From contig DASPQN010000073.1 in assembly GCA_035624925.1 (NCBI GenBank), positions 1-52,700 on the forward strand: a stretch of DNA of 52,700 bases, read 5' to 3'. The notes under the pieces are model-generated. The model saw only the letters and a list, made by a program, of their open reading frames with translations. It did not search any database and was not told the origin of the DNA. A program made the translations under genes and the position numbers. Position 1 is the first letter of the stretch. Each line of letters starts with the position of its first letter. Source of the stretch: Thermoplasmata archaeon. Lineage in GTDB: Archaea > Thermoplasmatota > Thermoplasmata > Lutacidiplasmatales > UBA184. This document shows positions 28,546 through 49,900 of the stretch, in pieces.

Positions 28546-28548
28546 GCC

Positions 28549-30953: not shown

Positions 30954-33914
30954 CTACGCCTTCTTCGCGGTGAACGTGACCGCCACCGTGGCGGCGGCGC
31001 CCGCCACCTTGACCGACTTCGGTAGGCCGGCGCTGTGGAAGCCGGTCACCAGGCCGATCTTGTAGCCGTACGTCGCGTTCGGGAGGTGGAAGACGATCGC
31101 GGTCCCCGCCGCGGCCGTCAGCACCTGGCCGTGGATCGTCACCGACCAGTTCCCGCTGATGAGCCCCGTCTCGGTGAACGTCACGTTGTACGGGTAGACG
31201 TACTTCAGCGCGATCGACGTGCTCTTGAGGAGGTCGATCGTCCCGGCGATCGGCACGACGACCTTCCCCTCCTTCGCCGTGATCGTCTGGCCGACGAGCG
31301 GCTGGACGGCGTACGGGTAGTTGCCCGGCGTGAGGTTGAGGAACTTCTCCGAGGCCTTGGTCGCGCACCGGTCGACGCCCGCGACCACGACGCACCAGGA
31401 GTGCCCCTTGGGCAGGCCGTGCTCGCCGAAGCCGAGGTTGACCGTCTTGCCCTTCGCGAAGGTGAAGGCGAGCGACACGGAGTTGCCGCTCACGTTCGTC
31501 GAGCCGGTCGCCGGCAGGTTCACGACCACGCTACCGGACGGCCCCGTCAGGAGGTAGGTGTACGTCCCGTTCGGGACCTTGAACGTCACGCTCGACGTCG
31601 TGGTCGACATCACCTGGCCGCCCAGGTACGCCGTCCAGCTCTTCTTCGGCAGACCGGCGGTCACCGTGAACGTCACCTTGTAGGCGACGACGTGGAAGGC
31701 GACGCCGACCGTGGCGGCCGCCCCGCTCACGCTGAACGTCCCCGGCGGGGCCGCGTACTTGAGGTTGGCCGAGCCGACGGTGTAGCTGTAGCCGCCGTCG
31801 GCCTCGATGAACCCGATGGACGCGGTCGTCGAGGCGTTCGTCCGAACGCCGACGGTGACCGACCAGTTGGTCCCGGCCGGAAGCCCCGTCTCGGTGAACG
31901 TGACGTTGTACGTCGTGCCGAGCAGGCTGACCGTTCCCTGGTGGTCGTTCGCGACGAACACCGCCGACTTCGCGGGGTCGTAGGCGACCCCCACAGGGTC
32001 CGCGCCGACGGATACGGTCGCGGTCACGAGGTCGGTCGCCGTCGAGATCACGCTGACGGAGTTCGAGCCCGAGTTCGCGACGAACACCTCGGCGTCCGCG
32101 GAGTCGTACGCCACGGCCGCCGGTGCCGTGCCCACCGTCACGGTGGCCACGACCGCATCGGAGCTCGCGTTGAGCACGCTCACGGTGCCCGAACCGGCGT
32201 TCGCGACGAACATCTCGTCCAGCGCCGGGTCGAAGGCGATCCCCTGGGGCTCGGAGCCGACCGTGATCGTGGCGACCACGGTGTCGTTGCTGTCGTTGAC
32301 GACGGTCACGGTGCCCGCGTGGTAGTCGGTCGCGAACAGCTCGCCCTGCGCCGGGTCGTAGGCGATGCCGTAGGTGCCGACCGAGACGTTCACCGCGGTC
32401 TTCACCGCGTTGCTCGAGCCGTTGATCACCGTGAGGTTGCCCGTGGTGAGGCTGGTGACGAAGACCTCGTCCGCCGCGCCGTCGTACGCCGCCCCCCTCG
32501 GGGACGCTGCGACCGTCGCCGGAGGGTTGACGGTGTTGGTCGAGTCGGCGATCGCGCTCACCGAGGCGCTCGCCGGCCCGACGACGAAGACCTTGCCTTC
32601 GGCGGCGGCGTAGGCGAGCGCGCCGGGGCTGTAGCCCACGGAGAGGTTCGCGGTCGGCAGGAGACTGGTGCTGGAGATGACGCTCACGCTCTTCGCGTCC
32701 CCGACCCCGACGAACGCCTCGCCCTGGCCCGTATCGTACGCGACGCTGGTCGGCACGAAACCGACCCGCACCGTCGCGGTGACGGCGTTGGCGACATCAG
32801 AGACGATGCTGACGTTGTCCGCGTTGCTGTTCGCCACGAAGACCGAGGCCTTCGTTGGGTCGTAGGCGACCCCGATGGGGCCCGGCCCGACCGGGACCGC
32901 GGCGACGACCGTATCGGTCGCATCCGCGATCACGGTCAGGGTGCTCGTGTTCTCGTTCGCGACGAACACCTCGCCGTGCGCCGGGTCGTAGACGATCCCC
33001 TGGGGCTCGACCCCGACCCCGACCGTGATCGCGACCTTGTCGGTCGCGTCGGAGACGACGCTCACGCTGCTCGAGCCGAAGTTCGTCACGAACACCTCGC
33101 CCTTCCCGGGGTCGTAGGCGACCGCCCACGGGCTCGTGCCGACCTTGACGTTGGTCACGACCTTACCGGTCGTGTCGTTGACGATCGTGAGGTTCGAGGA
33201 GCCGGAGTTCGCGACGAACAGCTGGCCCTTGGCGTGGTCCCAGGCGATCCCCTCGGGACTGCTGCCGACCGGGGTCACCGCGCCCGCGGTGTTCGTCCCG
33301 TCGTTGATCGCGACCACCCCGACGCTCGTCGTGACGAACACCTCGCTCTTCGACGGGTCGTACGCCGCAGCCCTCGGGGTCGCGGGCACCGTGACCGAGG
33401 CGACGACCGTGTTCGTCACGTCGGAGAGGACGCTGACGTTCGAGGATCCGTAGTTCGTGACGAACACCTCGCCCCGGGCCGGATCGTACGCCAACCCTTG
33501 GGGATGGGTCCCGACCGGGATGGTCGCGACCACGGCGTTCGTCGCGTCGGAGATCACGCTCACGCAGTTCGAGCCGGTGTCGGCGACGAACACCTCGCCC
33601 TTGGCGGAGTCGAAGGCCGCCGCGGTCGGGTCGATCCCGTTGAGGGAAAGAACGTTCCCCGGAAGGACGGAGTCGTTGACGAGGACGAGCGTGCTGATCA
33701 CGGTCGTCGCCGGCCCGACCGTCGGGACGATGTGGACCGTCGGCGCCGCCCGCGGCGGCGCCGCCACGGGAGCGGCCGCCGCCGGGCTGGCCGCTGACCC
33801 GGCCCCGACCGCGCCGAACGCCACGAGTGACGCCCCGATCATTCCGAGGACCCCGAAGATCGCTACCGCGACCGGCGTCCAGTTCCGCGCCCCGCCGCCC
33901 TTCCCCCGCGCCAT
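30954..33914 (-). CDS. Surface protein: N-terminal signal anchor, 14 YVTN-type beta-propeller repeats, C-terminal beta-sandwich stalk modules
   Basis: Start at internal ATG 33914 (MARGKGGGARNWTPVAVAIFGVLGMIGASLVAF). 14 units of the form VPVGxxPxGxAYDxxxGExFVxNxxSxNVSVIxDxTNxVVAT. Stalk has YNVTFTETGLPAGTNWSVTV and YNVTFTETGLISGNWSVTI. Many N-x-S/T sequons. Confidence 0.85.
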   Translation of the reverse strand: MARGKGGGARNWTPVAVAIFGVLGMIGASLVAFGAVGAGSAASPAAAAPVAAPPRAAPTVHIVPTVGPATTVISTLVLVNDSVLPGNVLSLNGIDPTAAAFDSAKGEVFVADTGSNCVSVISDATNAVVATIPVGTHPQGLAYDPARGEVFVTNYGSSNVSVLSDVTNTVVASVTVPATPRAAAYDPSKSEVFVTTSVGVVAINDGTNTAGAVTPVGSSPEGIAWDHAKGQLFVANSGSSNLTIVNDTTGKVVTNVKVGTSPWAVAYDPGKGEVFVTNFGSSSVSVVSDATDKVAITVGVGVEPQGIVYDPAHGEVFVANENTSTLTVIADATDTVVAAVPVGPGPIGVAYDPTKASVFVANSNADNVSIVSDVANAVTATVRVGFVPTSVAYDTGQGEAFVGVGDAKSVSVISSTSLLPTANLSVGYSPGALAYAAAEGKVFVVGPASASVSAIADSTNTVNPPATVAASPRGAAYDGAADEVFVTSLTTGNLTVINGSSNAVKTAVNVSVGTYGIAYDPAQGELFATDYHAGTVTVVNDSNDTVVATITVGSEPQGIAFDPALDEMFVANAGSGTVSVLNASSDAVVATVTVGTAPAAVAYDSADAEVFVANSGSNSVSVISTATDLVTATVSVGADPVGVAYDPAKSAVFVANDHQGTVSLLGTTYNVTFTETGLPAGTNWSVTVGVRTNASTTASIGFIEADGGYSYTVGSANLKYAAPPGTFSVSGAAATVGVAFHVVAYKVTFTVTAGLPKKSWTAYLGGQVMSTTTSSVTFKVPNGTYTYLLTGPSGSVVVNLPATGSTNVSGNSVSLAFTFAKGKTVNLGFGEHGLPKGHSWCVVVAGVDRCATKASEKFLNLTPGNYPYAVQPLVGQTITAKEGKVVVPIAGTIDLLKSTSIALKYVYPYNVTFTETGLISGNWSVTIHGQVLTAAAGTAIVFHLPNATYGYKIGLVTGFHSAGLPKSVKVAGAAATVAVTFTAKKA

Positions 33915-34092
33915 GCTCTGATCTTCCCGGCCTGCGAGAGCCGCGGAGTAACGGCCCGCGCGACCGGGGCAAGGAACGGGGTTCCGGGTCATATCCCTTC
34001 CGAGACGGCTAGGGGACCCACGAACGGAACCCCCAGTGGCCCTGCGGGCCCGCCGACGACCCCGGTGGACCGCAGAACGCCCGCGAGGAATC

Positions 34093-37000
34093 CTAGAGCA
34101 TCACTTGGCCGCTCACGCTCACGGCCCCGGTACCGAACGCAGCGAACGCGTAGCCGTTGCCGTCGAGCTGGCTCGCCGAGACCACGTTGATCGTGTAGCC
34201 GCCACCGGAGAGCGAGACCGCCTTCGACCAGCCATGGCTGGTGTAGACCGATACGATCAGGCCGGCCGCGTTCGTCAGGACGGCGTACCAGGTACCCGCG
34301 ACGCCCGTGCAGGTCGTGCCGGCCACGTAGGTCGGCGTTCCCGTGGCGGTGCAGCCCGCCGGGGCCGCCGCGGCGGCCAGGGGCAGGGTAGAGCTTGACG
34401 TCGTGACCTTGAGCCCGAACGCCGTCGTCAACACCGCCGACGAAGGGGTCACGGCGACGGCGACCCACCATGTGCTGCCGCTCCCGCCGGACACCGTGAC
34501 GGCCGGGCCGAGGCTGACCGGGGGAGGCAGCTGGGTCTTCGAGACGAACGTCACGATCGCCGCGGTCGCCGAGCCGTTGACCTTGAGCGTCTTCGGGACC
34601 CCGACGCTCTTGTAGCCGTTCACCGCGCCGACCTTGTAGCCGTAGGTCCCGTTCGGCAGCGAGAACGCGATCACGACCGCGCCGCCGACCGACTTGTGCA
34701 TGATCCCGTGGACGGTCACGCTCCAGTTCGTCCCGTTCGGGAGGCCGGTCTCGGTGAACGTCACCGCGTACGGGTAGACGTAGCTCACCGCGACCGCCTT
34801 GGCCCCGGGCACGGTGACGTTACCGTAGAGGCCCAGGACGGTCTTGCCGACCTTCACCGTGATCGTCTGGTTCGCCAGCGGGACGATGTGGTACGGATAG
34901 GTCCCCGGCGTGAGGTTCAGGAACCGGAGGTTGGGGATGGTGGAGCACTTCTCCCAGCCGCTCAGGACGACGCACCACGGCTGGCCCTTCGGGAGCCTCG
35001 ACTCGTGGAAGCCGGCGACGAACGTCTTGTTCTTCACGAAGCCGAACGCCTCCGACGCCCCGAACGCGGTGACCTTGACGGAGCCCGCGGGCGCCGTGAC
35101 GGTCGCCTGGTACCCCTTCGGACCCGCGACGGCGTACTGGTAGGTCCCCGTCGGCTCGCGGAAGGCGATCGACCGGCCGGTCGACGACACGGCGGAGCCG
35201 TTGATCGCGGCGGTCCAGCTCTTGCCGGTCGGCAGGCCGGTCTGGGAGAAGACGACGTACGGGAGCGTCGACACGCCGACGATCGAGACCGTCCCCTCGT
35301 TCTGGTTCGCGACGAACTCCTGCGAGCTCGCCGGGTCGACCGCGACCGCGACCGGCCCTCCGCCGACCGCGATCGTCGCCGCGACCTTCGTGGTCGCATC
35401 GGAGATCACGCTGATGTTGAACGAGCCGGTGTTCGCGACGTAGACCTGGGCGTGCGTCGGGTCGTACGTCACCCCGGTCGGCTCGACGCCCACCGGGACG
35501 GACGCCCGAACGCTCTCGGTGAGGTCCGAGATGACGCTCACGTTCCCCGAGCCCGAGTTCGCGACGAACAGCTCCTTCTTCGCGGCGTCGTAGGCGATCC
35601 CGGCCGGGTGCGAGCCGACCGGCACGGTCGCGGTGACCGCATCGGAGGTGTCGGAGATCACGCTCACGGTCCCCGAGTTGAAGTTGGACACGGCCACGGT
35701 CGCCGTCCCCGGATCGTAGCCGACCCCGTACGGGTGGACCCCGACGGGCACCGTCGCGGTGACCAGGTCCGTGGTCGCGTTGATCACGCTGACGTCGTTC
35801 GACCCCGCGTTCGCGACGAACATCTGGTCGGTCGCCGCGTCGTAGGCCAGCCCGAACGGCGTCGAGGCGACGGGCACGGTCGCGACGACGTGGTAGGTCG
35901 AATCGTTGATCACGCTCACGTCACTCGCTCCGGAGTTGGCGACGAACATCTCGTCGAGGCGCGGGTCGAAGGCCACGCCGACCGGTAGGGCGCCGACGGG
36001 GATCGTCGTCAGCAGCGTGCCGCTCGCTCCGGAGATGACGCCCACGGTCCCCGCGTTGCGGTTGGTGACGAAGACCGCGCCGGAGCTCGGGTCGTAGGCC
36101 GCACCCGCCGGTGTCGCCCCGACGGGGACCGTCGTCACCGTCGTGCGCGTCTTATCGGAGATGAGGGTGACGGCGTTCGACCCCGACTCGGCGACATAGG
36201 CCACCCCCGTCGTGTTGTCGAACGCTACCCCCGACGGGCCGGTGGAGGCCGGGACCGACGCGAGGACCGAGTCGTTCGTGTCCGTGATCACGCTCACGCT
36301 GTAGCTGAGCGAGTTCGCGACGAACAGGTAGCCCTTCTTGGCATCGTAGGCGATCCCCAGCGGCCCGGTGCCGACCTGGACGGTCCCGACGACCGTGTTC
36401 GTGGCCGTCGAGATCACGCTGGTCGTGTTGGAGCCGAAGTCGGTGACGTACATCCGGCTCTTCCCGGAGTCGTAAGCCAGGGCGTACGGGTGGGCGCCGA
36501 CCGACACGGTCGCGACCACGGTGTCGCTCGCGTCCGAGATCACGCTCACGTTGCTCGAGCCGTAGTTCGCGACGTACACGTCCCCGGTCGCCGGGTCGTA
36601 GGCGACGCCGGCGGGCTCGATCCCGACGGGGACCGTGGCGACGATCGCGTTCGTCACGTTGCTGATGATGCTGACGTTGTCGGAGAGGTAGCTCGAGACG
36701 AACACCTCGCCCCGGGCGGTGTCGTAGGCGATCCCGTCCGGGCCGAACCCGACCGGGATGGAGAGGACGGTCGAATTGGAGCTGTCCGAGATGACGGAGA
36801 CGTTCCCGTTGTTCTCGTCCGCGACGAACACCTCGCCGTTCGCCGGGTCGTACGCCAGGCCGTCCGGACCGGACCCAACGGGGATGGTCGCCATCACCGT
36901 ATTGTTCACGCCGGACACGACGCTCACGTTGCCCGAAAGGTAGTCGGAGACGTAGACCGCGGTCGCCACGGGGTCGTAGACGGCGCCCGTCGGCCCGAGA

Positions 37001-37269
37001 CCGTTCCCCGCGGAGAAGTTGCCGGGGACCAGGGTGCCGTTGAAGACGACCAGCGTCGCCGCCACGGTCGACGGCGGGTTGACCGACGGCGCGCGGGCTG
37101 CGTGGGCGGGGGCCGACCCGTGGAACGTTGCCGGGCCGGCGCTGCCCGCCGAGGCGCTCCCGAGCGGGAACGTCGCGACGAGCGGCCCGACCATCGCAAG
37201 GATGCCCACGATAGCGATGACGGCGATCGTTCGTCCCAGCGCGCTCTGCGTCGGCTTCCCTGTCGTCAT
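34093..37269 (-). CDS. Paralogous surface protein: signal anchor, 14 YVTN repeats, stalk modules and an extra C-terminal domain of about 160 aa
   Basis: Start at internal ATG 37269 (MTTGKPTQSALGRTIAVIAIVGILAMVGPLVA). 14 AYD/VYD-containing repeats counted by eye. YAVTFTETGLPNGTNWSVTVHG. The upstream part of track ORF 34093..38142 is rejected. Confidence 0.85.
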   Translation of the reverse strand: MTTGKPTQSALGRTIAVIAIVGILAMVGPLVATFPLGSASAGSAGPATFHGSAPAHAARAPSVNPPSTVAATLVVFNGTLVPGNFSAGNGLGPTGAVYDPVATAVYVSDYLSGNVSVVSGVNNTVMATIPVGSGPDGLAYDPANGEVFVADENNGNVSVISDSSNSTVLSIPVGFGPDGIAYDTARGEVFVSSYLSDNVSIISNVTNAIVATVPVGIEPAGVAYDPATGDVYVANYGSSNVSVISDASDTVVATVSVGAHPYALAYDSGKSRMYVTDFGSNTTSVISTATNTVVGTVQVGTGPLGIAYDAKKGYLFVANSLSYSVSVITDTNDSVLASVPASTGPSGVAFDNTTGVAYVAESGSNAVTLISDKTRTTVTTVPVGATPAGAAYDPSSGAVFVTNRNAGTVGVISGASGTLLTTIPVGALPVGVAFDPRLDEMFVANSGASDVSVINDSTYHVVATVPVASTPFGLAYDAATDQMFVANAGSNDVSVINATTDLVTATVPVGVHPYGVGYDPGTATVAVSNFNSGTVSVISDTSDAVTATVPVGSHPAGIAYDAAKKELFVANSGSGNVSVISDLTESVRASVPVGVEPTGVTYDPTHAQVYVANTGSFNISVISDATTKVAATIAVGGGPVAVAVDPASSQEFVANQNEGTVSIVGVSTLPYVVFSQTGLPTGKSWTAAINGSAVSSTGRSIAFREPTGTYQYAVAGPKGYQATVTAPAGSVKVTAFGASEAFGFVKNKTFVAGFHESRLPKGQPWCVVLSGWEKCSTIPNLRFLNLTPGTYPYHIVPLANQTITVKVGKTVLGLYGNVTVPGAKAVAVSYVYPYAVTFTETGLPNGTNWSVTVHGIMHKSVGGAVVIAFSLPNGTYGYKVGAVNGYKSVGVPKTLKVNGSATAAIVTFVSKTQLPPPVSLGPAVTVSGGSGSTWWVAVAVTPSSAVLTTAFGLKVTTSSSTLPLAAAAAPAGCTATGTPTYVAGTTCTGVAGTWYAVLTNAAGLIVSVYTSHGWSKAVSLSGGGYTINVVSASQLDGNGYAFAAFGTGAVSVSGQVML

Positions 37270-37511
37270 CGCCCGTGTACCGGTAGCGTCCGCCCCATGC
37301 GCGGTCGGCCCCGACCCCGAGAGGCCTAGAACATGGACGGGTTTAGACCTTCCGCGGAGCCCCCGGCGGCCGACCACGACAGTCCGATGCCGGGGATGGG
37401 GGCCGCCCCAGGCGATCGCGCAGGGACCCGGCCCGTGGGGTAAGGTTTCGGACGCCGGGGGCGCGTGCTCGAGCGTCGCTGCGGGTCGCCAGCGTCCCAC
37501 CGGCCCCCCGC

Positions 37512-38987
37512 TCAGTACGTCGGCAAGCCGGGGTCGATCTTCTGGGCCCAGCCGTTGATCCCGCCCCGCAGGTTGCGGACGTTCTGGAAGCCGAGCTCGA
37601 GCAGCATCCGGACCGCGTCGGCCGACCGGGCCCCCGAGCGGCAGAAGACCACGACCGAACGCGCGTGGGTCAGCTCGTCGACCCGTTCGGGCAGTTCGGC
37701 CTTCGGGATAGGGACCGCGCCCTCCAGGTGGGAGATCTCCAGCTCGGCAGGTTCCCGAACGTCGACCAGGAGCGGCGGGTCCGGTCCCGCGAGCTCGTCG
37801 CGGAGGGCCTCGGGCGTGACCTCGGGGATCCCGTGCCCGGCGGGCGCGGTCGCGACCCCGCAGAACGCGGGGTAGTCGATCAGGCCGTGCTGGGTCGCCT
37901 TCGGTGAGCAGAGGACGCAGTCCGGGTTCTTCTCCAGACGGAGTTGGCGGAACGTCATCGAGCTCGCGTCGTAGAGGAGGAGACGACCGATCAGCGGCTC
38001 CCCGATCCCGACGAGGAGCTTGATCGCCTCGGTCGCCTGCAGCGCCCCGACGACGCCCGGGAGCACCCCCAGGACCCCGGCCTCCGCGCAGGACGGCACG
38101 AGGTCGGGCGGAGGGGGCTCGGGGTACAGACAGCGATAGCAAGGGCCCCGCCGTGCGTCAAAGACGCTGACCTGGCCCTCGAACCGGTAGATCGACCCGT
38201 AGACGTTCGGCTTGCCGAGCAGGACGGAGGCATCGTTGACGAGGTAGCGGGTCGGGAAGTTGTCGGTCCCGTCGATCACGACGTCGTAGCCTCCCAGGAT
38301 CTCGAGCGCGTTGGAGGAGTCGAGGTGCCCCTCGTGAGGGACGACGGTCGTGCCCGGGTTGAGCCGCTCCAGGCGCTCCCGTGCGGCCGCGAGCTTCGGC
38401 CGTCCGACGTCGTCCGTGCCGTAGAGGACCTGGCGCTGAAGGTTCGACAGGTCGACCGTGTCGAAGTCGACGAGGCCCAGGGTCCCGACGCCCGCGGCCG
38501 CGAGATACAGGGCCGTCGGGGCCCCCAGGCCCCCGGTCCCGACGAGGAGCACTTTCGCCCGGCGGAGCGCCCGCTGACCGCCCACCCCCACCTCGGGAAG
38601 GAGGAGATGTCGACTGTATCGGCGGAGCTCGTCCGCCGAGAACGGTGCGGCCGGCCCCGGACCGGCGCGCCCGGCGGCCGCCACGCGTCGGGGCCCGGCC
38701 TCGGCGGGGCTGCCTCCGGCGATCGCCGGGACGATCGAGACGATGTCCCCGTCCGCCACGGGGGTGGCGTCGCGCTGGAGCGCCCGCACGTCCGTGTCGT
38801 TGACGTAGATCGACACGAAGTTCCGGACCTTGCCGTCGGGGGTGAGCAGGTGGCGGCGGAGCCCGGGATAGGCCTCGGTCAGCTGGCGGACCGCCGCGCC
38901 GACGGTGTCGGCCTCGACGGCGACCTCCGGCGCGCCACCCACGAACGTTCTCAGGGGGGTCGGGACCCTCACCGTAGCCTTCGGCAC
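37512..38987 (-). CDS. In-frame fusion of a CysO/MoaD-like ubiquitin-fold sulfur carrier (92 aa, ending AIAGG), a MoeB/ThiF-type E1 adenylyltransferase and a rhodanese domain (MoeZ-like)
   Basis: GTG 38987 lies 2 nt after the JAMM stop. Ubl part: (M)PKATVRVPTPLRTFVGG...FVSIYVNDTDVR...IVSIVPAIAGG. E1 part: RYSRHLLLPEVGVGGQ, VGTGGLGAP, DFDTVDLSNLQRQ, CYRCLYP, CAEAGVLG, PDCVLC. Rhodanese part: VVVFCRSGARS. No stop follows the GG codons (38712-38717). Confidence 0.8.
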   Translation of the reverse strand: MPKATVRVPTPLRTFVGGAPEVAVEADTVGAAVRQLTEAYPGLRRHLLTPDGKVRNFVSIYVNDTDVRALQRDATPVADGDIVSIVPAIAGGSPAEAGPRRVAAAGRAGPGPAAPFSADELRRYSRHLLLPEVGVGGQRALRRAKVLLVGTGGLGAPTALYLAAAGVGTLGLVDFDTVDLSNLQRQVLYGTDDVGRPKLAAARERLERLNPGTTVVPHEGHLDSSNALEILGGYDVVIDGTDNFPTRYLVNDASVLLGKPNVYGSIYRFEGQVSVFDARRGPCYRCLYPEPPPPDLVPSCAEAGVLGVLPGVVGALQATEAIKLLVGIGEPLIGRLLLYDASSMTFRQLRLEKNPDCVLCSPKATQHGLIDYPAFCGVATAPAGHGIPEVTPEALRDELAGPDPPLLVDVREPAELEISHLEGAVPIPKAELPERVDELTHARSVVVFCRSGARSADAVRMLLELGFQNVRNLRGGINGWAQKIDPGLPTY

Positions 38988-38989
38988 CG

Positions 38990-39487
38990 TCAGTCCTCCG
39001 GCATCGCCGTCGCCCGGCCAAGCGGTCCGGGCGTGTGGGGGGCGGGCACGTCGGCCCCGAGCCGCAGCTCGCACCGGCGGAACGCGCCACCCTCCGCCGC
39101 CAGTTCGAACGCCCCCGCGTCGCAAGCGCCGGCGCGGTCGACCGAGACGACGACGTAGGTGTACCATGGCCAAGCGTGCTCGGTGTCGAACGCCGAGGGG
39201 CGCGCCGGATGGTCGGGGTGCGAGTGGTAGAAGCCGCTGACGACCTCGCCTCGCGCGGTCGCGCGCGCCTCGGCCGCCCGCAGGCCGGCCGCGGTGATCA
39301 CGAACCGGCGCCGGCGCTCGCCGTCGACCTCGTTCGGCGCCGCCTCGGTGCCGACGACCGCGCGGAGGGGTTCGTCGGCGTCGGCGGCCTTCGAGAGGAG
39401 GAACCCGCAGGCCTCGTCGGGGTAGCTGGCGCGGGCCTCGTGCTCGATCGTGGCGAGCAGCGGGCGGGGCATCGTCACGCCTCTCAC
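38990..39487 (-). CDS. mec: JAMM/MPN+ metalloprotease (Mec+-like)
   Basis: YPDEACGFLL (catalytic Glu) and GFYHSHPDHPARPSAFD (H-x-H-x7-S-x2-D). The GTG start overlaps the cysM stop (GTGA). Alternative ATG at 39472. Confidence 0.85.
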   Translation of the reverse strand: MRGVTMPRPLLATIEHEARASYPDEACGFLLSKAADADEPLRAVVGTEAAPNEVDGERRRRFVITAAGLRAAEARATARGEVVSGFYHSHPDHPARPSAFDTEHAWPWYTYVVVSVDRAGACDAGAFELAAEGGAFRRCELRLGADVPAPHTPGPLGRATAMPED

Positions 39488-40449
39488 GGGTCCGTTCCCC
39501 CCCGCGGCTCGGCGGCGTCAGGGACGATCGCGACAACGAACGCCTCGGGGTGACCGGCGGCGAGCGCCAACGCCGCCGCCACGGCGGCGCCGGCCGAGGC
39601 ACCGACCCGCAGTCCCTCCTCGCGGGCGAGGCGCTGCACCATCCGCTCGGCCTCCTCGGTCTCGATGCGGACGGTCGCGTCGATCACGCTCCCGTCGTAG
39701 GTCCCCGGTCGACGGGCGGTCGGGAGGTGCTTGAGCCCCTCAAGGCCGTGGATCGGGCCGGTCGGCTCGACCCCCACGACGGAGATCGAGGCGCGCTGCT
39801 CCTTGAGGAACCTGCCGGCCCCGGAGATCGTCCCCCCGGTACCGACGCCGGCGACGAGGTGGGTGACCCGACCGCGGGACTGCCGCCAGATCTCCGGGCC
39901 GGTGCCGGTGTAGTGGGCGAGCGGGTTCGCGGGGTTGCGGTACTGGTCGGCGAGGAAGTAGCGGCGCGGGTCGGCGGCGGCGCGGTCGCGGGCGGCCTCC
40001 TGAGCTCCGTCCGTACCGCCGGCGGGGTCGGTCAGGACGACCTCGGCCCCGAAGGCGCGGATCGCCCGGAGCCTCGCGGGGTTCGCCTGGCGAGGGACGA
40101 ACAGCAGCACGGGGAAGCCGAGCCGTGCCCCGAGCATCGCGTACGAGACGGCGGTGTTCCCGCTCGATGCGTCGACCAGGGTCCGGCCGGGACCGAGGGA
40201 ACCGTCGGCGAGGGCGGCGCGAACGATCCCAAGGGCTGCCCGGTCCTTCACCGAGCCGCTCGGGTTCATCGACTCCAGCTTCGCCCAGAGCTGGAACCGG
40301 GGTCCCGCCTCCCGCGCGACCGCGCCCAGTCGCACGAGCGGGGTCGAGCCCACGGAGAGGAGCAACGGGTCGTCCGTCGGGGAGGGGGCGAGTCGGGAGG
40401 ACCCCCCGATCGAGGGAGTCCCTAGGCGAGCTGAATCAGATGCGAACAC
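39484..40449 (-). CDS. cysM: PLP-dependent cysteine synthase (CysM/CysK family)
   Basis: GSTPLVRL, KLESMNPSGSVKDRAAL (PLP lysine), SSGNTAVSYA, GVGTGGTISG. The 5' end overlaps the upstream regulator by 28 nt, so the true start may be internal. Confidence 0.85.
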   Translation of the reverse strand: MFASDSARLGTPSIGGSSRLAPSPTDDPLLLSVGSTPLVRLGAVAREAGPRFQLWAKLESMNPSGSVKDRAALGIVRAALADGSLGPGRTLVDASSGNTAVSYAMLGARLGFPVLLFVPRQANPARLRAIRAFGAEVVLTDPAGGTDGAQEAARDRAAADPRRYFLADQYRNPANPLAHYTGTGPEIWRQSRGRVTHLVAGVGTGGTISGAGRFLKEQRASISVVGVEPTGPIHGLEGLKHLPTARRPGTYDGSVIDATVRIETEEAERMVQRLAREEGLRVGASAGAAVAAALALAAGHPEAFVVAIVPDAAEPRGGTDP

Positions 40450-41087
40450 CGCAGTCCCCCGCGACCGATCGAATCCTCGAGGTCAATGCCGACCTCTCCG
40501 AGGAGGGCCTCGGTAAGGTGCTTGTCGAAGACGTCGCAGAGGAGGAACGGGTGCGCAAGGGCGCTGTGGCGGAAGACGCAGTTCGTTCGCACGACGCGGA
40601 GCCGGCCGTCCGGGGCCCGCTCCACGTGGGAGCGGAAGCCGAGGCGGTTCAGGAGGGTGACGAGGTTCCGGGCCTTCTCCTCGGGGTCCTTCCCCGGGGC
40701 CACGTCGTGCGCGACGACCCGGGCGACCCGCTCGCCCGCTTCGGCGAGGATCGCGCTTGCATACCCCTCGCCCTCGTGGGCCAGCAGCCCGTCGACGATC
40801 GCGTCGACCATCAGGTCGTACTTCTTCGGGAACTGCTCTTGGCCCTCCGCGGTCAGCGCGTAGCGCTTGCGCGGCCGGCCCACACCCTCGCGGCGGAACG
40901 TCGGGACAACCCAGCCGCGCTCCTCCAGCCGGTCGAGGTGCCCTCGTGCCGCGCTCTCCTGGATCCCTAAGAGCCGGGCAAGGTCGCGCGCGGTCTTCGG
41001 CCCGGCCGCGAGCTCCCCGAGGACCTTCCCGCGGGTCCCCTCGAGGGGGCTGGTCTCCGTTGGCGCCGGGGAAGGAATCGACTTCAT
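40422..41087 (-). CDS. sufR: ArsR-type winged-helix regulator with a Cys-containing C-terminal domain, SufR-like
   Basis: TARDLARLLGIQESAARGHLDRLEERGWV, GVGRPRKRYALTAEGQEQFPKKY, then NCVFRHSALAHPFLLCDVF...GGLRCSHLI (3 Cys). Divergent from sufC. Start taken at ATG 41087 rather than the TTG at 41147. Confidence 0.6.
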   Translation of the reverse strand: MKSIPSPAPTETSPLEGTRGKVLGELAAGPKTARDLARLLGIQESAARGHLDRLEERGWVVPTFRREGVGRPRKRYALTAEGQEQFPKKYDLMVDAIVDGLLAHEGEGYASAILAEAGERVARVVAHDVAPGKDPEEKARNLVTLLNRLGFRSHVERAPDGRLRVVRTNCVFRHSALAHPFLLCDVFDKHLTEALLGEVGIDLEDSIGRGGLRCSHLIQLA

Positions 41088-41123
41088 CGGAGGCCGTGGT
41101 AGGGATTTACTCACCGCGCCATG

Positions 41124-41131
41124 TTTAAATA
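41124..41131. promoter_or_regulatory. TATA box TTTAAATA in the 69-nt sufR-like/sufC divergent intergenic region
   Basis: Centred about 29 nt upstream of the sufC ATG at 41157. The same octamer recurs upstream of sufB. Confidence 0.5.
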
Positions 41132-41156
41132 ACGGTATCGGCTGCAACCGGGCGTA

Positions 41157-41939
41157 ATGGTGGCCACTCCGTTAGCGACCCCGCACTCGCTCGTCGTTGA
41201 GGACCTTCATGCGGAGGTCGCCGGCAAGGAGATCCTCCGCGGCGTCAACCTTTCGCTCAAGAGCGGCGAGCTGACGGCGCTGATGGGGCCGAACGGCTCC
41301 GGCAAGAGCACGCTCGCCTACGCCCTGATGGGCCACCCGAAGTACAAGGTGACCCGGGGCCGGGCGCTCCTCGACGGCAAGGACCTATTGACGATGCCGG
41401 TCGAGCAGCGCTCGAGGGCCGGGCTCTTCCTCGGCTTCCAGTACCCGCAGGAGGTCTCCGGCCTCTCGCTCGCGAAGTTCCTCTGGACCGCTTACATGCA
41501 GCGGCACACCGCGCAGGACGCTGACACCGCCGGCTTCGACCGGGACCTGAAGACGCACCTCGGCTACCTCGAGATGAACGACAGCCTGCTCAAGCGCTCG
41601 CTGAACGAAGGGTTCAGCGGTGGGGAGAAGAAACGGGTCGAGGTGCTGCAGATGGCGACGCTGCGGCCGGTCTTCGCGATCCTCGATGAGCCGGACTCCG
41701 GCCTCGACATCGACGCGGTGAAGGCGGTCGGGGAGACCGTCGCGAAGCTCCACCGCCCCGACGCGGGGATCCTCGTCATCACCCACTACCAGCGGATCCT
41801 GAAGTACCTCCAGCCCGACCGGGTCCACGTGATGGTCGACGGGGTCGTCGCGCTCTCCGGCGGCCGCGAGCTCGCGGAGGAGCTCGAGGCGAAGGGTTAC
41901 GACTGGGTCCGCGTTGGGGCGCCCGCCCCGTCGGCGTAG
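41157..41939 (+). CDS. sufC: Fe-S cluster assembly ATPase SufC
   Basis: GPNGSGKSTLAYALMGHPKY, FLGFQYPQEV, NEGFSGGEKKR, AILDEPDSGLDIDA, ITHYQRIL. Confidence 0.92.
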   Translation: MVATPLATPHSLVVEDLHAEVAGKEILRGVNLSLKSGELTALMGPNGSGKSTLAYALMGHPKYKVTRGRALLDGKDLLTMPVEQRSRAGLFLGFQYPQEVSGLSLAKFLWTAYMQRHTAQDADTAGFDRDLKTHLGYLEMNDSLLKRSLNEGFSGGEKKRVEVLQMATLRPVFAILDEPDSGLDIDAVKAVGETVAKLHRPDAGILVITHYQRILKYLQPDRVHVMVDGVVALSGGRELAEELEAKGYDWVRVGAPAPSA

Positions 41940-41965: not shown

Positions 41966-43225
41966 GTGAACGTCGACCAGCTCCGGAACGACTTTCCCAT
42001 CCTCGCCCGAGAGGTCCAGGGCAAGCCGCTCGTCTACCTCGACTCCGCGGCGACCTCGCAGAAACCGAAGTCGGTCCTCCAGGCGGAGGAGGAGTTCTAC
42101 CGTTTCTCCAACGCGAACGTCCATCGCGGGGTCTACGCGCTCAGCGTCGAGGCGACCGACGCCTACGAGGCCGCCCGGGCCCGGGCCGCGAGGTTCCTAG
42201 GGGCGCGCGACCCGGACGAGGTGGTGTTCCTCCGGGGCACGACGGAGGCGATCAACCTCGTCGCGACGAGCCTGGGCCGCTCGCTCCTCCATCGCGGCGA
42301 CCGCGTCGTCGCCACGGTCATGGAGCACCACTCGAACATCGTCCCTTGGCACCTCCTGCGCGAGTACGCCGGGGTCGCGGTCGACTTCCTCGACATCGAG
42401 GACGACGGACGCCTGAAGCTCGACATGCTCGACCGGTACCTCGCGGACGGGCGCACGAAGGTCGTGACCCTCACCCATGTCTCGAACGTCCTCGGCACCG
42501 TGAACCCGGTCCGCGAGATCGCCGAGCGGGCGCACGACAAGGGGGCCCTGGTCGTCCTGGACGCCGCGCAGTCGGCGCCGCATCGCCGCCTGAACGTCGA
42601 GGAGCTGGGGGTCGACTTCGTCGCCTTCTCCGGCCACAAGATGCTCGGGCCGATGGGGATCGGGGTCCTGTGGGGCCGGCATGAGAAGCTCGAGGCCCTC
42701 CCGCCGTGCATGGGCGGTGGCGAGATGATCCGGGAGGTCCACACCGACAGGGTCAGTTACCGGGACATCCCGCTGCGGTTCGAGGCCGGGACGCCGAACG
42801 TCGGCGGAGCGGTGGCCCTCGCCGCGGCGTTCGATTACCTCGAGGCGGTCGGCTGGGACGACCTTCGCCGGCACGAGGAGCGCCTGCTCTCGAAGATGGT
42901 CCACGACGGCCGCGAACGCCTGGGAAAGGCGCTCCGCATCTTCGGCCCGTCCGACCCTCGCGAGCGGGAGGCGGTCGTCTCGTTCGCCCTCGAGGGGGTA
43001 CATCCGCACGACATCGCGAGCCTGCTCGACGCCGACGGCGTCTGCGTCCGCGCGGGCCACCACTGCGCCCAGCCGCTGATGGACCGGCTCCGGGTCCCTG
43101 CGCTCACGCGCGCCAGCCCCTACCTGTACACCACCGAGGCCGAGGTCGACCGCCTCTACGACGCGCTCGAGAAGGTCGCCCGGCTGTTCTCGGGAGCGGC
43201 GGCGCGCCCGGCGCACGCCGGCTGA
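41966..43225 (+). CDS. sufS: Cysteine desulfurase SufS (group II)
   Basis: VYLDSAATSQKP, NANVHRGVY, FSGHKMLGPMGIGVLWG (PLP lysine), RAGHHCAQPL (catalytic Cys loop). GTG start with a GGGAGGT SD-like element 9 nt upstream. Confidence 0.9.
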   Translation: MNVDQLRNDFPILAREVQGKPLVYLDSAATSQKPKSVLQAEEEFYRFSNANVHRGVYALSVEATDAYEAARARAARFLGARDPDEVVFLRGTTEAINLVATSLGRSLLHRGDRVVATVMEHHSNIVPWHLLREYAGVAVDFLDIEDDGRLKLDMLDRYLADGRTKVVTLTHVSNVLGTVNPVREIAERAHDKGALVVLDAAQSAPHRRLNVEELGVDFVAFSGHKMLGPMGIGVLWGRHEKLEALPPCMGGGEMIREVHTDRVSYRDIPLRFEAGTPNVGGAVALAAAFDYLEAVGWDDLRRHEERLLSKMVHDGRERLGKALRIFGPSDPREREAVVSFALEGVHPHDIASLLDADGVCVRAGHHCAQPLMDRLRVPALTRASPYLYTTEAEVDRLYDALEKVARLFSGAAARPAHAG

Positions 43226-43364: not shown

Positions 43365-43395
43365 CGCTCTGGTGTTGGAATTCCCCGAGGCGCGT

Positions 43396-44808
43396 ATGGC
43401 TCAGACGGCTCAGGAGATCACTCCGCTCGATTACACGCGCTACGACTTCAAGGACCCCGAGACGTACCGGGTGCGGATCCCGAAGGGGCTCTCGCGCGAC
43501 GTCGTCCGCAAGATCAGCGAGCTCAAGCACGAGCCCGCCTGGATGCTCGACTATCGCCTGAGGGCGTACGACCACTTCGTCGACCGTCCGATGCCGGACT
43601 GGGGGCCCAGCCTCTCGGACATCGACTTCGATGCCTACACGTACTACGCCGACCCTCTCGGCGACGAGAAGCCGAAGCGGAGCTGGGACGACCTGCCGGC
43701 CGACATCAAGAACACGTTCGAGCGGCTCGGGATCCCGAAGGCGGAGCGCGAGTTCTTCGGAGGGGTCGGGGCGCAGTACGACAGCGGCACGGTCTACCAC
43801 AAGATCCGCGAGGACCTCGCCGCGAAGGGCGTGATCTTCACGGACACCGACACCGCGGTCCGGGAGCATACGGAGATCGTCCGCAAGTACTTCGGCAAGA
43901 TCGTCCCGTACAACGACAACAAGTTCGCCGCGCTGAACAGCGCGGTCTGGTCCGGCGGCAGCTTCGTCTACGTCCCGCCCGGGGTCGACGCGGGGATCCC
44001 GCTCCAGGCGTACTTCCGCATCAACGCCCGGAACGTCGGGCAGTTCGAGCGGACGCTGATCATCGCCGACAAGGGCGCGAAGGTGCACTATATCGAAGGG
44101 TGCACGGCGCCCATCTACTCGACCGACTCGCTCCACGCCGCGGTCGTCGAGGTCGTGGCGGAGCCGCACGCCAAGGTCCGCTACACGACCGTGCAGAACT
44201 GGTCGAAGAACGTCTACAACCTCGTGACGAAGCGCGCGGTCGGCTACGAGGACTCGCTGGTCGAGTGGGTCGACGGGAACATGGGCTCGAAGGTGACGAT
44301 GAAGTACCCGTCGGTCTACCTCAAGGGTCGAGGGGCGCGCGCCGACATCCTCTCGGTCGCGTTCGCGAGCGAGGGCCAGGTGATCGACTCCGGCGCGAAG
44401 GCGGTGCATTCGGCCCCCGACACCTCGAGCAAGATCGTCGCGAAGTCGATCGCGATCCGCGGAGGTCAGACGAGCTACCGCGGCCTGCTCCACGTCGCCC
44501 CCGGGGCGACCGGCGTCAAGGCGGCCGTCCGTTGCGACGCGCTGCTCCCCGACGTCCTCGGGCGCTCGGACACCTACCCGTACAACGAGATCCACGAGGA
44601 GGATGCGACCATCACCCACGAGGCGGTCGTCGGCAAGATCGGGGAGGAGCAGATCTTCTACCTGATGAGCCGGGGCCTCTCGGAGTCCGACGCGATCCAC
44701 CTGATCCTCATGGGGTTCCTCGCCGAGTTCGCGAAGGAACTGCCGGTCGACTACGCCCTCGAGCTGAACCGCCTGATCCAGCTCGAGATGACCGGCGCGG
44801 TCGGCTAG
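43396..44808 (+). CDS. sufB: Fe-S cluster assembly scaffold SufB
   Basis: KHEPAWMLDYRLRAYDHF, NSAVWSGGSFVYVPPGV, ERTLIIADKGAKVHYIEGCTAP, GQTSYRGL, HEAVVGKIGEEQIFYLMSRGL. ATG 43396 is preferred over the track GTG at 43372. Confidence 0.92.
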   Translation: MAQTAQEITPLDYTRYDFKDPETYRVRIPKGLSRDVVRKISELKHEPAWMLDYRLRAYDHFVDRPMPDWGPSLSDIDFDAYTYYADPLGDEKPKRSWDDLPADIKNTFERLGIPKAEREFFGGVGAQYDSGTVYHKIREDLAAKGVIFTDTDTAVREHTEIVRKYFGKIVPYNDNKFAALNSAVWSGGSFVYVPPGVDAGIPLQAYFRINARNVGQFERTLIIADKGAKVHYIEGCTAPIYSTDSLHAAVVEVVAEPHAKVRYTTVQNWSKNVYNLVTKRAVGYEDSLVEWVDGNMGSKVTMKYPSVYLKGRGARADILSVAFASEGQVIDSGAKAVHSAPDTSSKIVAKSIAIRGGQTSYRGLLHVAPGATGVKAAVRCDALLPDVLGRSDTYPYNEIHEEDATITHEAVVGKIGEEQIFYLMSRGLSESDAIHLILMGFLAEFAKELPVDYALELNRLIQLEMTGAVG

Positions 44809-46751: not shown

Positions 46752-46938
46752 GGTGAACGTCGAACCTGTCGGGCGAAACGTGCCCTCTACAACTCGGACC
46801 GGCCCCGTCCGGCGAGCCGTCGTGGAAGGTGAGATAGGGGCAGTCTCAGGTCGCGCGCCATCGTGATTTTTGTAGTATAACCTCTTAGGTTCGCCCCAGC
46901 CGTCCGGGCACGGCTATCGGAGAACCGGGGGATCTGTC

Positions 46939-49900
46939 ATGGGGCAACGGAGTCGCAATCGGATTGTGGGTGTCGCATTGGTCGCCGCGCTGATGGCGGT
47001 GAGCGGGATCGTCGCCGCCGTCCCCGGGGCGTTCGCCCAGGCAGGACTGGGCGGCGCGGCGGGACCGACACCCATCGGCACTGTGACCCTCACGCCCACG
47101 GCCCCGGGGGTCGCATGGTCGGTGTCGGAGCTGCGGGCCGCGGGTGCGGTCGCCGCGCCGTATACCGAGTCGGGGTATGGTCTGCCTCAGGCTAGGTACC
47201 AGGGCCCCGCGACCTTCGCGTCTCCCGTCGACCCGAACGGCACGGTCAACATCCTCGTGTCGCTCGCGTTCTCGAACAGTACCGAGCTCACCCAGCTCCT
47301 GGCCGCCCTCCAAAACCCTGCGTCGCCCCAGTACCACCACTATCTCACCGCCGCGCAGTTCGACGAGCGCTTCGGGGGGGCCCCCTCGGTCTACCGTTCG
47401 CTCGTCCAGTACCTGGCCTCCTTCGGCGTCACGGGCCTGACGACGCACCCGGACCGGCTGAGCGTCACCTTCGGGGCGACCTCCGCCCAGGTCCGTGCGA
47501 TCTTCGGGACGCAGCTCGGGTCGTACCTGAACGCCTCGGGGCTCCCGTACTACGCGCCCGAGTCGATGCCGCAGGTCCCGGCCCCTCTGGCGCCGTACAT
47601 CATCGACGTGGAGGGCTTGAGCAACTTCTCCGAGTACCAGAACTCGTTCGCCCCCGTCGAGATGGCGACGCCCGTCGGCGCGATCGCCGGGGACGCCGCG
47701 ACAGGCTCCTCCCCGTCCACCGTCCTTCCCGACACCCTGGCCGCCTGCGGGGCGGACCCGATCCCCCCGGGCTGCACGGGCAATCCGTTCACCCCCACGA
47801 CCGTGACCTCGGGCGGCCTGACGCTCACCTACGACCAGCCGGCGACCTTCAATCTCAACGGCAAGTCCGGGACCTGCGACACGAACACCTGCGGGGACAT
47901 GGTCCAGGCCCCGGACCTGCAGGTCACGTACAACGAGACCGGGCTGTTCCAGAAGTACGGCTACCCGGTCAACGCCACCGTCGCGGCGATCCTCTGGACC
48001 GACCCGGTGTGCACGGCGAACTCCGGGACGTGTGCGACCGACGCCCTCTACAACTACTGGTGCCACCAGCTGACGAGCGGGACCGACGCCTGGGACTTCT
48101 TCATGCCCGATGTCAGCTCGTTCTGGAACTATACCCTCCCGGTCGGCGAGCCCCTCCCGCGAGCGGTCTCGGAGGGGATCACGGGGTACACCTACGCCTA
48201 CCCGGCGGGATCCCGTGGGTTCTCCGCCTCGTGCGATGACAACGAGGCCGAGGGAGAGAACACGCTCGACGTCGATATGCTCGGGGCGATGGCCCCGGGG
48301 GCGAACGTCTTCCAGGTCTTCGGCGGGAGCTCGTCGTCGGCCGCGCTCGCGACCGTCTTCTCCGATATCCTGAGCCCGGCCACGAGCGACTTCACCGCCA
48401 CCGGCGGGTTCGATACGTCGACCAACATGCAGGACCTGATGAACGTCAGCGTGATCACGAACTCCTGGGGCGGGGTCGGGTCCCTCACTCCGACATGGCT
48501 CAGCGACCTGACGACCGCGGCCGCCCGCGGGATCACGGTCCTCGCGGCGACCGGCGACTCCGGGACCACGGTCGAGGCCCCGTCGGAGTACGCCTACAAT
48601 GTTCTCGGCATGCTGGGCGTCAGCGGGACCACCGCGGCGATCAACCCGACCACGCTGCTCCGCGGCCCCCCGCACCTCGCCTCGGCCGCGGCCCCCTACT
48701 ACGGCGTCGGCACGGGGGAGATCGGCTGGTACGAGCCTGCGGGCACGGTCGACGGTTTCACGGCGACGTACGGTGGGACGGAGGGCGTCGCCTCCTCGAC
48801 GGTGTACTACCGCGCGAGCTGGTTCAACGCCTCGGCCGACGCGAACGGCGTGGCGAACGCGGTGCGCAGCGGCAACTACCGAGCGGTCGGCGACATCGCC
48901 GGCGTCTCGAACGACACGATCATCGACCTCGACGCCGGTCCGTACTCCCTGAACTTCACGTGCTGGGTCTCCAGCGCGTGCACCAAGATCGCCCCGAACA
49001 CGACCGGGACGACCTCCGGCTCCGCTCCGACGGTCGGAGGGACGTACTTCATCGGGACGAGCATCTCCGACCAGGTCGAGGGCGGCGTCCTCGCCACGAT
49101 CGACCACGCCCTCTACACCCAACCAGGGACCGTCTGCGAAGGCTACCAGGCCTACACGGGTTCCTGCGGGGCCGTCGTTCCGCCCGAGACGGGCAACTAC
49201 CACGAGGGCTGGGTAGGCTACAACAACCCCGCCATCTACTCGATGGGCCAGATGGCCTACTCGGGCCAGCTGACCCTCCCCTCGTTCTACGACGTCACGA
49301 CGTACACGGACGCGGGAGGGCTCGCGGCGACCTATGAGGCGAAGGTCGGCTATGACCTCGCGACCGGCTGGGGCGCAATCGCGGCCTGGAACTACACGCA
49401 GAACATCCTGACGTACAACACGACGTTCACCGAGACCGGTCTCCCCGCGAGCACCTCCTGGTCCGTGACCGTGACCCCGACCGTTGGGGACGCGAACTGC
49501 ACGGTCAGCGGGAGCAGCTGCTCGAACGGCGTGACCCGGACGACGACGGGTTCCTCCCAGACGGCGCTCCCCGAGGCGTACGGTTCGTTCGCCTATACCG
49601 TGCCGGCGGTCGGGGCCTACTCGCCGTCGCCGAACGGCGGATCGTTCAGCGTCAACGGCGCGGGCAACACGATCACCATCGTGTTCAATCAGTTGCATGT
49701 CTCCCCCTCGGCAACCCCCAACCCGGAGCAGGTCGGAGGCACCACCACCGTCCACGCCGGGGCGAGTGGGGGCTCGGGGGTCTACGCGTCCTACCTGTGG
49801 TCGGGAACGGTCCCGACGGGATGCACCCTACCGGGGTCGGTCGCCTCGTGGACCTGCACGCCGAGCACCGGTGGCCAGGGCAGCTACGTGATCAACGTGA

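Follow-up and report, generated by a model that had tools for sequence, protein, structure and literature searches.

The window analysed here, a 52.7-kb stretch of DNA (71% GC) from a Thermoplasmata archaeon, carries on its minus strand a co-directional unit in which genes for a cysM-type cysteine synthase and a JAMM (JAB) metalloprotease are followed by a single open reading frame (ORF) that joins a ThiS/MoaD-like ubiquitin-like (Ubl) sulfur carrier to an E1 enzyme with a rhodanese domain (Table 1). The cysM stop and the start of the JAMM gene overlap by 4 nt, the JAMM gene ends with TGA at 38992–38990 and, after a gap of 2 nt, the GTG at 38987 opens a 491-aa frame that ends at 37512. The diglycine codons of the carrier, GGA GGC, occupy 38717–38712 and reading continues through them in frame as SPAEAGPRRVAAAGRAGPGPAAPFSADELRRYSRH, with no stop. 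The GG pair is internal (residues 91–92 of 491) and is not the free C-terminus of the gene product. The original prediction, made from the letters of the window, had called the order cysM, JAMM, Ubl-E1-rhodanese at this position, the 2-nt spacing, the H-S-H-x7-S-x2-D motif of the JAMM protein and the uninterrupted frame after the GG codons at 38712–38717, and all of these are borne out, the last exactly. NCBI lists an identical protein as ‘MoeB [Thermoplasmata archaeon]’, and many members of the fusion family already bear a three-part name in IMG.

Table 1. Genes and domains at the cysM–JAMM–fusion locus and its sufCSB neighbours; positions are those of the window.
Feature	Position	Strand	Basis
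Winged-helix regulator, weakly SufR-like	40422..41147	-	Pfam MarR_2/PadR/HTH_5; NCBIfam SufR_cyano 47.8 bits (cut-off 178.8)
cysM-type cysteine synthase, dependent on pyridoxal phosphate (PLP), 321 aa	39484..40449	-	Pfam PALP 2.3e-71
JAMM/MPN+ metalloprotease, 165 aa	38990..39487	-	Pfam Prok-JAB 3e-19
Fusion ORF, Ubl-linker-E1-rhodanese, 491 aa, GTG start	37512..38987	-	Pfam, three domains
CysO-like beta-grasp sulfur-carrier domain, residues 1–92, ending IVPAIAGG	38712..38987	-	Pfam ThiS (residues 6–92, 3.9e-13); PDB; AlphaFold2 model
Predicted scissile bond, Gly92-Ser93 (GG/[AS]P)	38711..38712	-	Orthologue junction pattern; cleavage inferred
Linker, hypervariable, predicted disordered, rich in A/P/S/R/G, about residues 93–112	38652..38711	-	Low model confidence; orthologue comparison
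MoeB/MoeZ-type E1 adenylation domain, residues 124–357	37917..38618	-	Pfam ThiF 1.6e-82
Rhodanese domain, residues 391–482, active-site loop C449-RSGARS	37542..37817	-	Pfam Rhodanese 2.9e-20
sufC	41157-41939	+	NCBIfam sufC 315 bits, above cut-off
sufS, cysteine desulfurase	41966-43225	+	NCBIfam sufS 548 bits, above cut-off
sufB	43372-44808	+	NCBIfam sufB 679 bits, above cut-off

A lost stop codon or a frameshift during sequencing or assembly could merge two neighbouring genes, and the source is a single metagenome-assembled contig whose high GC content yields long spurious ORFs. One such over-extension occurs at this locus, a 696-aa ORF (37512..39602) which we rejected as a gene since it overruns the JAMM gene in another frame; the GTG start at 38987 is backed by the N-terminus common to the orthologues, MPKATV[KR][VI]PTPL. 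A merger at the GG codons was likewise rejected, and we regard it as practically impossible given how often the in-frame fusion recurs. All 120 listed relatives (68–100% identity, 483–505 aa), which come from independent samples, are full length and have the ThiS, ThiF and Rhodanese domains. A second family, comprising 477-aa proteins of Gemmatimonadota, shows the same three domains in 120/120 listed clusters. The architecture is thus found in at least 240 listed 90%-identity clusters (Thermoplasmata and Gemmatimonadota) and in 41 GTDB species genomes, with linkers that differ in length by whole codons only.

The N-terminal domain is a carrier of the CysO type. Its best sequence match in the PDB is CysO of Mycobacterium tuberculosis (3dwg_C, E=1.2e-19), which aligns end to end through the terminal GG, followed by the Amycolatopsis CysO of 4n6e. 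An AlphaFold2 model of the domain alone (residues 1–95) has a beta-grasp fold (predicted local distance difference test, pLDDT, 86.4), and a Foldseek search with this model again places 3dwg_C first (template modelling, TM, scores 0.80/0.82, 47% identity). The top structural matches are all CysO (3dwg_C, 4n6e_B and 3dwm_A, TM 0.80–0.87), and SAMP1, MoaD-related proteins and Urm1 come next. Sequence and structure agree here with the likeness to M. tuberculosis CysO given in the original prediction, and modelling gives the N-terminal domain the beta-grasp fold on which that proposal depended.

The junction behind the carrier is conserved in a particular way. The P-A-[IV]-A-G-G tail shows no variation among the 120 listed orthologues; Ala or Ser follows GG in 108 of them, and Pro occupies the next position in 101. 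A linker of 12–25 residues comes next, rich in A/P/S/R/G and without sequence conservation, in which the frame is always kept, and it leads into a conserved E1 N-terminus, x-x-[DE]-[ED]-L-R-R-Y-S-R-H. In the model of the full-length protein pLDDT is below 50 at residues 89–112. An invariant GG followed by [AS]-P and a disordered, hypervariable linker is the pattern that would be expected of a flexible processing site, not of a structured junction. An internal translation start for the E1 is unlikely, as Met accounts for 0.2% of linker residues and no start is conserved; it could not explain the carrier anyway, because the carrier C-terminus would stay unfreed.

Proteins with residues after the GG of a Ubl were also seen outside the fusion family. 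The Thermus thermophilus ‘MoaD related protein’ of PDB 1v8c (168 aa) has its GG at residue 87, followed by a domain of about 80 residues, and gives a structural precedent for a carrier with an internal GG. In a library of representatives at 50% identity, which holds many truncated or frameshifted predictions and was used solely for the pattern after GG and not for architecture counts, CysO-like Ubl domains are followed directly by other domains in P0122, P0219, P0197, P0189, P0216 and P0163; these include a second ThiS (tandem Ubl), TusA, glyoxalase, FHA and a DSP-phosphatase-like region. Some of these may be gene-calling chimeras; if they are real, polyproteins released by JAMM would be a wider theme.

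One genome per GTDB species was scanned with a 5-sequence Ubl alignment, which gave 80 loci, and three metagenomic loci brought the set to 83. The window proteins were mapped onto all of these by tblastn; 82 loci were complete, and in one Thermoplasmata locus a contig end truncates the operon. Across the 83 loci the genes follow the order cysM, JAMM, Ubl, E1-rhodanese, and the complete loci comprise 41 fused and 41 split forms. Thermoplasmata loci are fused in 21/21 complete cases (plus the one cut by the contig end) and never split, with JAMM directly upstream in 21/21 and cysM upstream of JAMM in 20/21. Among bacteria, the 20 fused loci have JAMM directly upstream in 20/20 and cysM upstream of it in 19/20, and the corresponding figures for the 41 split loci are 37/41 and 36/41. 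Over all complete loci, JAMM thus lies directly upstream of the Ubl in 78/82 and a cysM homologue upstream of JAMM in 75/82, and the E1-rhodanese gene immediately follows the split carrier in 40/41 loci. The bacterial loci belong mainly to Acidobacteriota, with others from Gemmatimonadales, Vicinamibacterales, Bryobacterales, Blastocatellia, Chloroflexia and Krumholzibacteriia.

When the E1-rhodanese proteins are placed on a neighbour-joining tree, those of archaea group in one clade, which is entirely fused, and the bacterial fused and split forms are interleaved, with at least nine changes of state. The sister pair L067 and L077 illustrates such a change: the fused form (L067) reads GG-LDVEPEAATLTNLEVARYSRH in one frame, and the split form (L077) reads GG-TMR-stop, with an ATGA overlap with the start of MTLSNAEVARYSRH. 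The conserved gene order and the interchange of fused and split forms on the E1 tree make the fused Ubl an orthologue of the free carrier.

Some loci in the set are irregular. E1 or CysM matches are fragmented in L044, L036, L045 and L060 (Acidobacteriota and related), which likely reflects frameshifts, pseudogenes or assembly errors. The operons of L063 (Candidatus Saccharimonadales) and L030 (Rugosimonospora sp.) nest within Acidobacteriota on the E1 tree, and L030 is nearly identical to L027 and L028; these contigs were probably mis-binned in metagenome-assembled genomes and do not mark true presence in those taxa.

The split carriers bear directly on the question of processing, as none of the 41 ends at GG. 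Each has extra residues, 1–12 in number apart from one aberrant tail of 112 aa (L044), hence trimming of the JAMM type would be needed even without the fusion. On this sequence pattern, the carrier of this operon family appears always to be made as a precursor, with the fusion as its most extreme form, where the E1 itself would take the place of the ‘propeptide’. Several split-carrier tails are rich in cysteine or start with it (CVII, CAPSCCCC, SAPSCCC, LC, RC, ADLYCICK, SHLRCICS and GLNGGSSIAPCC, from loci including L018, L042, L043, L056, L058, L079 and L081; the carrier starts near position 5001 in most). Where Cys directly follows GG, the tail resembles the carrier-Cys that the pathway yields; other tails are poly-Cys.

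It could be argued that the fusion is never cleaved and that its Ubl is a regulatory or docking domain, with the real carrier encoded elsewhere; a regulatory role of the tethered domain was an option raised in the original prediction. ThiF proteins of the Campylobacter type have an N-terminal Ubl that is distinct from ThiS/MoaD, together with a separate ThiS carrier in the operon, and a different role of the Ubl has been inferred for them (PMC1779556); the genome beyond the window could hold such a carrier too. We find this quite improbable for the present locus. The complete carrier tail is retained, with IVPA[IV]AGG invariant, the junction is disordered and hypervariable, and the free carriers that occupy its place in other operons are its orthologues, with repeated fusion and fission between the two forms. 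Its Ubl passes Pfam ThiS and matches CysO, and tblastn found no second Ubl gene at a distance of up to 5 kb from any locus of the 83, the 41 fused ones included, which sets the family apart from the Campylobacter type; a six-frame search with a profile hidden Markov model likewise found none in the 52.7-kb window.

If the Ubl is a carrier, the chain must be cut, because an internal Gly92 cannot be activated: the E1 needs a free C-terminal glycine carboxylate, whose adenylation is established for MoeB/MoaD and MoeZR/CysO (PMC3227635). The adjacent JAMM would be the evident protease for the fusion. Members of its family cut sulfur-carrier chains at the peptide bond that follows GG; Mec+, for instance, releases Cys from CysO-Cys, also an alpha-peptide bond after GG (PMC3227635). 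The original prediction had argued that the chain must be cut behind GG and had named the adjacent JAMM as the candidate protease; the loci described above lend this comparative support.

We consider it probable that the 491-aa ORF encodes a precursor, made up of a pro-carrier and its E1, which is cut by JAMM after Gly92 and feeds a cysteine cycle of the CysO/CysM/Mec+ type. Here we infer the cleavage and the protease responsible, and also the serine ester used, the donor of the sulfur and the product, cysteine. JAMM, which is encoded alongside the fusion and coupled to it in translation, would cut the peptide bond after Gly92 (AIAGG/SP). Two proteins would result, a MoeZ-like E1-rhodanese and a CysO-like carrier of 92 residues whose Gly-Gly carboxylate is free. 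The E1 would then adenylate the C-terminus of the released carrier, a persulfide on rhodanese Cys449 would turn the adenylated carrier into a thiocarboxylate, and the CysM-type PLP enzyme would move the sulfur onto an activated serine to form carrier-Cys. Finally, the same JAMM would hydrolyse the Gly-Cys bond, yielding free cysteine and a recycled carrier, the role that Mec+ plays in M. tuberculosis.

The enzymes needed for such a cycle have intact catalytic motifs. The E1 has GTGGLG at 150–155, the zinc cysteines C283/C286/C357/C360 and, in a loop, Cys300; GxGxxG, these five cysteines and rhodanese Cys449 are invariant across 38 aligned orthologues. Its Foldseek matches include MoeB 1jw9_B (TMt 0.90), ThiF (0.90–0.92) and Uba4 6yub. 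The JAMM protein has the motif HSHPDHPARPSAFD at residue 88 and an intact metal site, E25...H88-S-H-x7-S-x2-D. Its best PDB match is 2kcq_A (E=3.4e-24), one of only two in the PDB set, annotated only as a Mov34/MPN/PAD-1 family protein. In CysM, the PLP lysine is Lys68, within SVKDR. The basic residue aligned with Arg210 of Escherichia coli CysM is Lys here and likewise Arg in M. tuberculosis CysM, and we take this position not to discriminate between the serine esters.

Several points weigh against a JAMM-processed cysteine module. For every member of the fusion family cleavage is a prediction, and a separate carrier could lie elsewhere in the genome, as the search for one covered the window and the loci. 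The JAMM protein matches generic Prok-JAB only, and Mec+ has no PDB entry for direct comparison. CysM scores 307 bits with TIGR01138 cysM, below the cut-off of 394, and is nearer to E. coli/Salmonella CysM 2v03 (236 bits) than to M. tuberculosis CysM 3dwg_A (185 bits); with an E. coli-like CysM that scores under the cut-off, the substrate may be O-phosphoserine or O-acetylserine, and the use of a protein thiocarboxylate is putative. Furthermore, if SufS supplied the sulfur, the pathway would consume cysteine to make cysteine.

The same module could be processed and yet serve as a general sulfur-carrier/E1 system, for molybdopterin, tRNA thiolation or SAMP-like conjugation, with cysteine not its main output. 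This overlaps with the cysteine pathway that we favour, as MoeZR of M. tuberculosis already serves both CysO and MoaD, and an E1 freed by cleavage could likewise serve other carriers. NCBI names the protein MoeB, and MoeB PRK08762 (475.6 bits, above the cut-off of 449) is the sole NCBIfam model that the E1 passes; MoeZ PRK07878 gives 475.7 bits, under its cut-off of 647. SAMP1 structures are also good structural matches of the Ubl. We nevertheless think a general system rather unlikely to be the better description. A cysM homologue is found in the operon at 75/82 loci, in an archaeal class and several bacterial phyla, the window ORFs scanned include no MoaE, MoaA/C, TtuA/NcsA or E2-like gene, and the Ubl resembles CysO more closely than it does MoaD or SAMP. 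The mechanistic overlap with archaeal SAMP/UbaA/HvJAMM1 conjugation, as originally proposed, was overstated, since the three proteins fall below the NCBIfam equivalog cut-offs for SAMP1 (51.5 bits, cut-off 60), UbaA (324, cut-off 450) and desampylase (the JAMM protein; 58, cut-off 130).

Genes of Fe-S assembly adjoin the cysM–JAMM–fusion unit. Its first gene, the winged-helix regulator, is divergent from sufCSB and overlaps the cysM start by 28 nt; the exact start of the regulator is uncertain. It is found upstream of cysM in the Thermoplasmata loci that have enough upstream sequence and in 0 bacterial loci. The regulator has three C-terminal cysteines (NCVF, LLCD and LRCS), and its position between sufCSB and cysM-JAMM-fusion suggests that Fe-S assembly and the supply of cysteine are controlled together. 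The sufCSB genes also lie beside the module in the metagenomic loci L001–L003, and the SufCSB proteins may supply persulfide sulfur. Besides SufS, the window encodes a cysteine desulfurase of the NifS/IscS type (5217-6413, minus strand), which could likewise donate persulfide to the rhodanese. A more speculative proposal, which we regard as improbable, is that the fusion acts as a zymogen-like switch, in which the carrier, and possibly the E1, would stay inactive until a metal- or redox-sensitive JAMM cuts, with Suf co-regulation through the SufR-like regulator, and/or that the released Ubl is conjugated to proteins in Thermoplasmata, so that a sulfur module of bacterial type would be tied to protein modification in archaea.

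Two very large NHL/YNCE beta-propeller repeat proteins (30957-34100 and 34096-37299, both minus strand) sit between the fusion gene and an ABCE1/RLI gene (28546-30321). The pair looks like a lineage-specific insertion, as the syntenic loci L001–L003 hold just one small gene (161 or 197 aa) at that position. An ORF on the plus strand that runs beyond the end of the window (46876-52698, >1,941 aa) contains a pro-kumamolisin activation domain and, behind it, numerous PKD, Big and Y_Y_Y repeats, and probably encodes a secreted or surface sedolisin-type protease.

If the proposed cycle is correct, many uncultured Thermoplasmata, along with many Acidobacteriota and Gemmatimonadota, would make cysteine via a protein-thiocarboxylate route that is experimentally known only from actinobacteria, and JAMM would be needed twice, for maturation of the carrier and again at each turnover. 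The automatic annotation of the protein as ‘MoeB, molybdopterin synthase adenylyltransferase’ would also need correction, as would the view that the fusion serves molybdenum-cofactor synthesis. Furthermore, the fusion would be a natural and simple substrate on which to study the recognition of linear Ubl fusions by prokaryotic JAMM proteins.

The locus has the same parts as the CysO/CysM/Mec+/MoeZR pathway of M. tuberculosis, which was reportedly described by Burns in 2005 and O’Leary in 2008: a CysO-like carrier, a PLP-dependent CysM-type synthase, a JAMM hydrolase and an E1 with a C-terminal rhodanese. The comparative evidence backs this correspondence with the actinobacterial set, which had been drawn from the parts list at the outset. 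Carrier, synthase and JAMM are clustered in both and the same chemistry would be expected. Unlike here, M. tuberculosis CysO is a protein in its own right, with 93 aa and a terminal GG, and MoeZ is unlinked there. In the archaeal protein the carrier forms the N-terminal part of the E1 chain, and a proteolytic cut has to come before it can first be activated. Further differences are a CysM nearer to that of E. coli, an E1 below the MoeZ equivalog cut-off and an archaeal host.

Gene content is exactly that of operon type 4c in Table 1 of Iyer, Burroughs & Aravind 2006 (PMC1779556), which combines ThiS/MoaD, an E1-like enzyme fused to rhodanese, JAB and cysteine synthase, and our bacterial loci, mostly Acidobacteriota, agree with the phyla listed for that type. 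In type 4c the Ubl is a separate gene, and neither an in-frame Ubl-E1-rhodanese nor presence in Thermoplasmata was described there. Ubl-E1 fusions were noted in Thaumarchaeota in 2010 (PMC2948915), and MoaD-MoeB(-rhodanese) fusions of unclassified Euryarchaeota and Poseidoniales were catalogued in 2024 as clusters 356.1–356.3, with >55% identity to Acidobacteria for MoaD-MoeB-rhodanese (PMC11237513). The latter have the same domain architecture as the fusion described here, and their bacterial likeness agrees with our archaeal and bacterial clades; they were read as molybdenum-cofactor biosynthesis, with the cysM-JAMM context and the need for cleavage not discussed. The novelty claimed at first was therefore overstated, as the operon type, the fusion in Euryarchaeota and maturation by JAMM had all been published (PMC1779556, PMC11237513, PMC5925218, PMC8832034). 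With operon type and fusion both catalogued, the locus is an uncharacterised example of a known system and not a new kind; in the open-access literature we found no paper that ties the fusion to the cysM-JAMM context or tests its cleavage. Our analysis adds that the fused and the split form can replace each other in one conserved operon, that the archaeal copies are a single, all-fused clade related to bacterial ones, and that all carriers of the operon family are, on sequence grounds, putative precursors.

Precursors matured by JAMM provide the remaining comparison. QbsD trims CF after the GG of QbsE, and CxnF has been proposed to trim 10 residues from CxnE (PMC5925218); DR0402/DRJAMM and HvJAMM1 cleave linear MoaD-MoaE and SAMP fusions and expose the C-terminal Gly (PMC8832034). 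The archaeal fusion resembles QbsE/QbsD, CxnE/CxnF, MoaD-MoaE/DR0402 and SAMP1-MoaE/HvJAMM1 in having residues after GG and a JAMM encoded in the cluster (PMC5925218, PMC8832034, PMC4443979). These systems accept linear alpha-peptide fusions in which the ‘propeptide’ is 2–10 residues or MoaE, whereas here it would be the activating E1.

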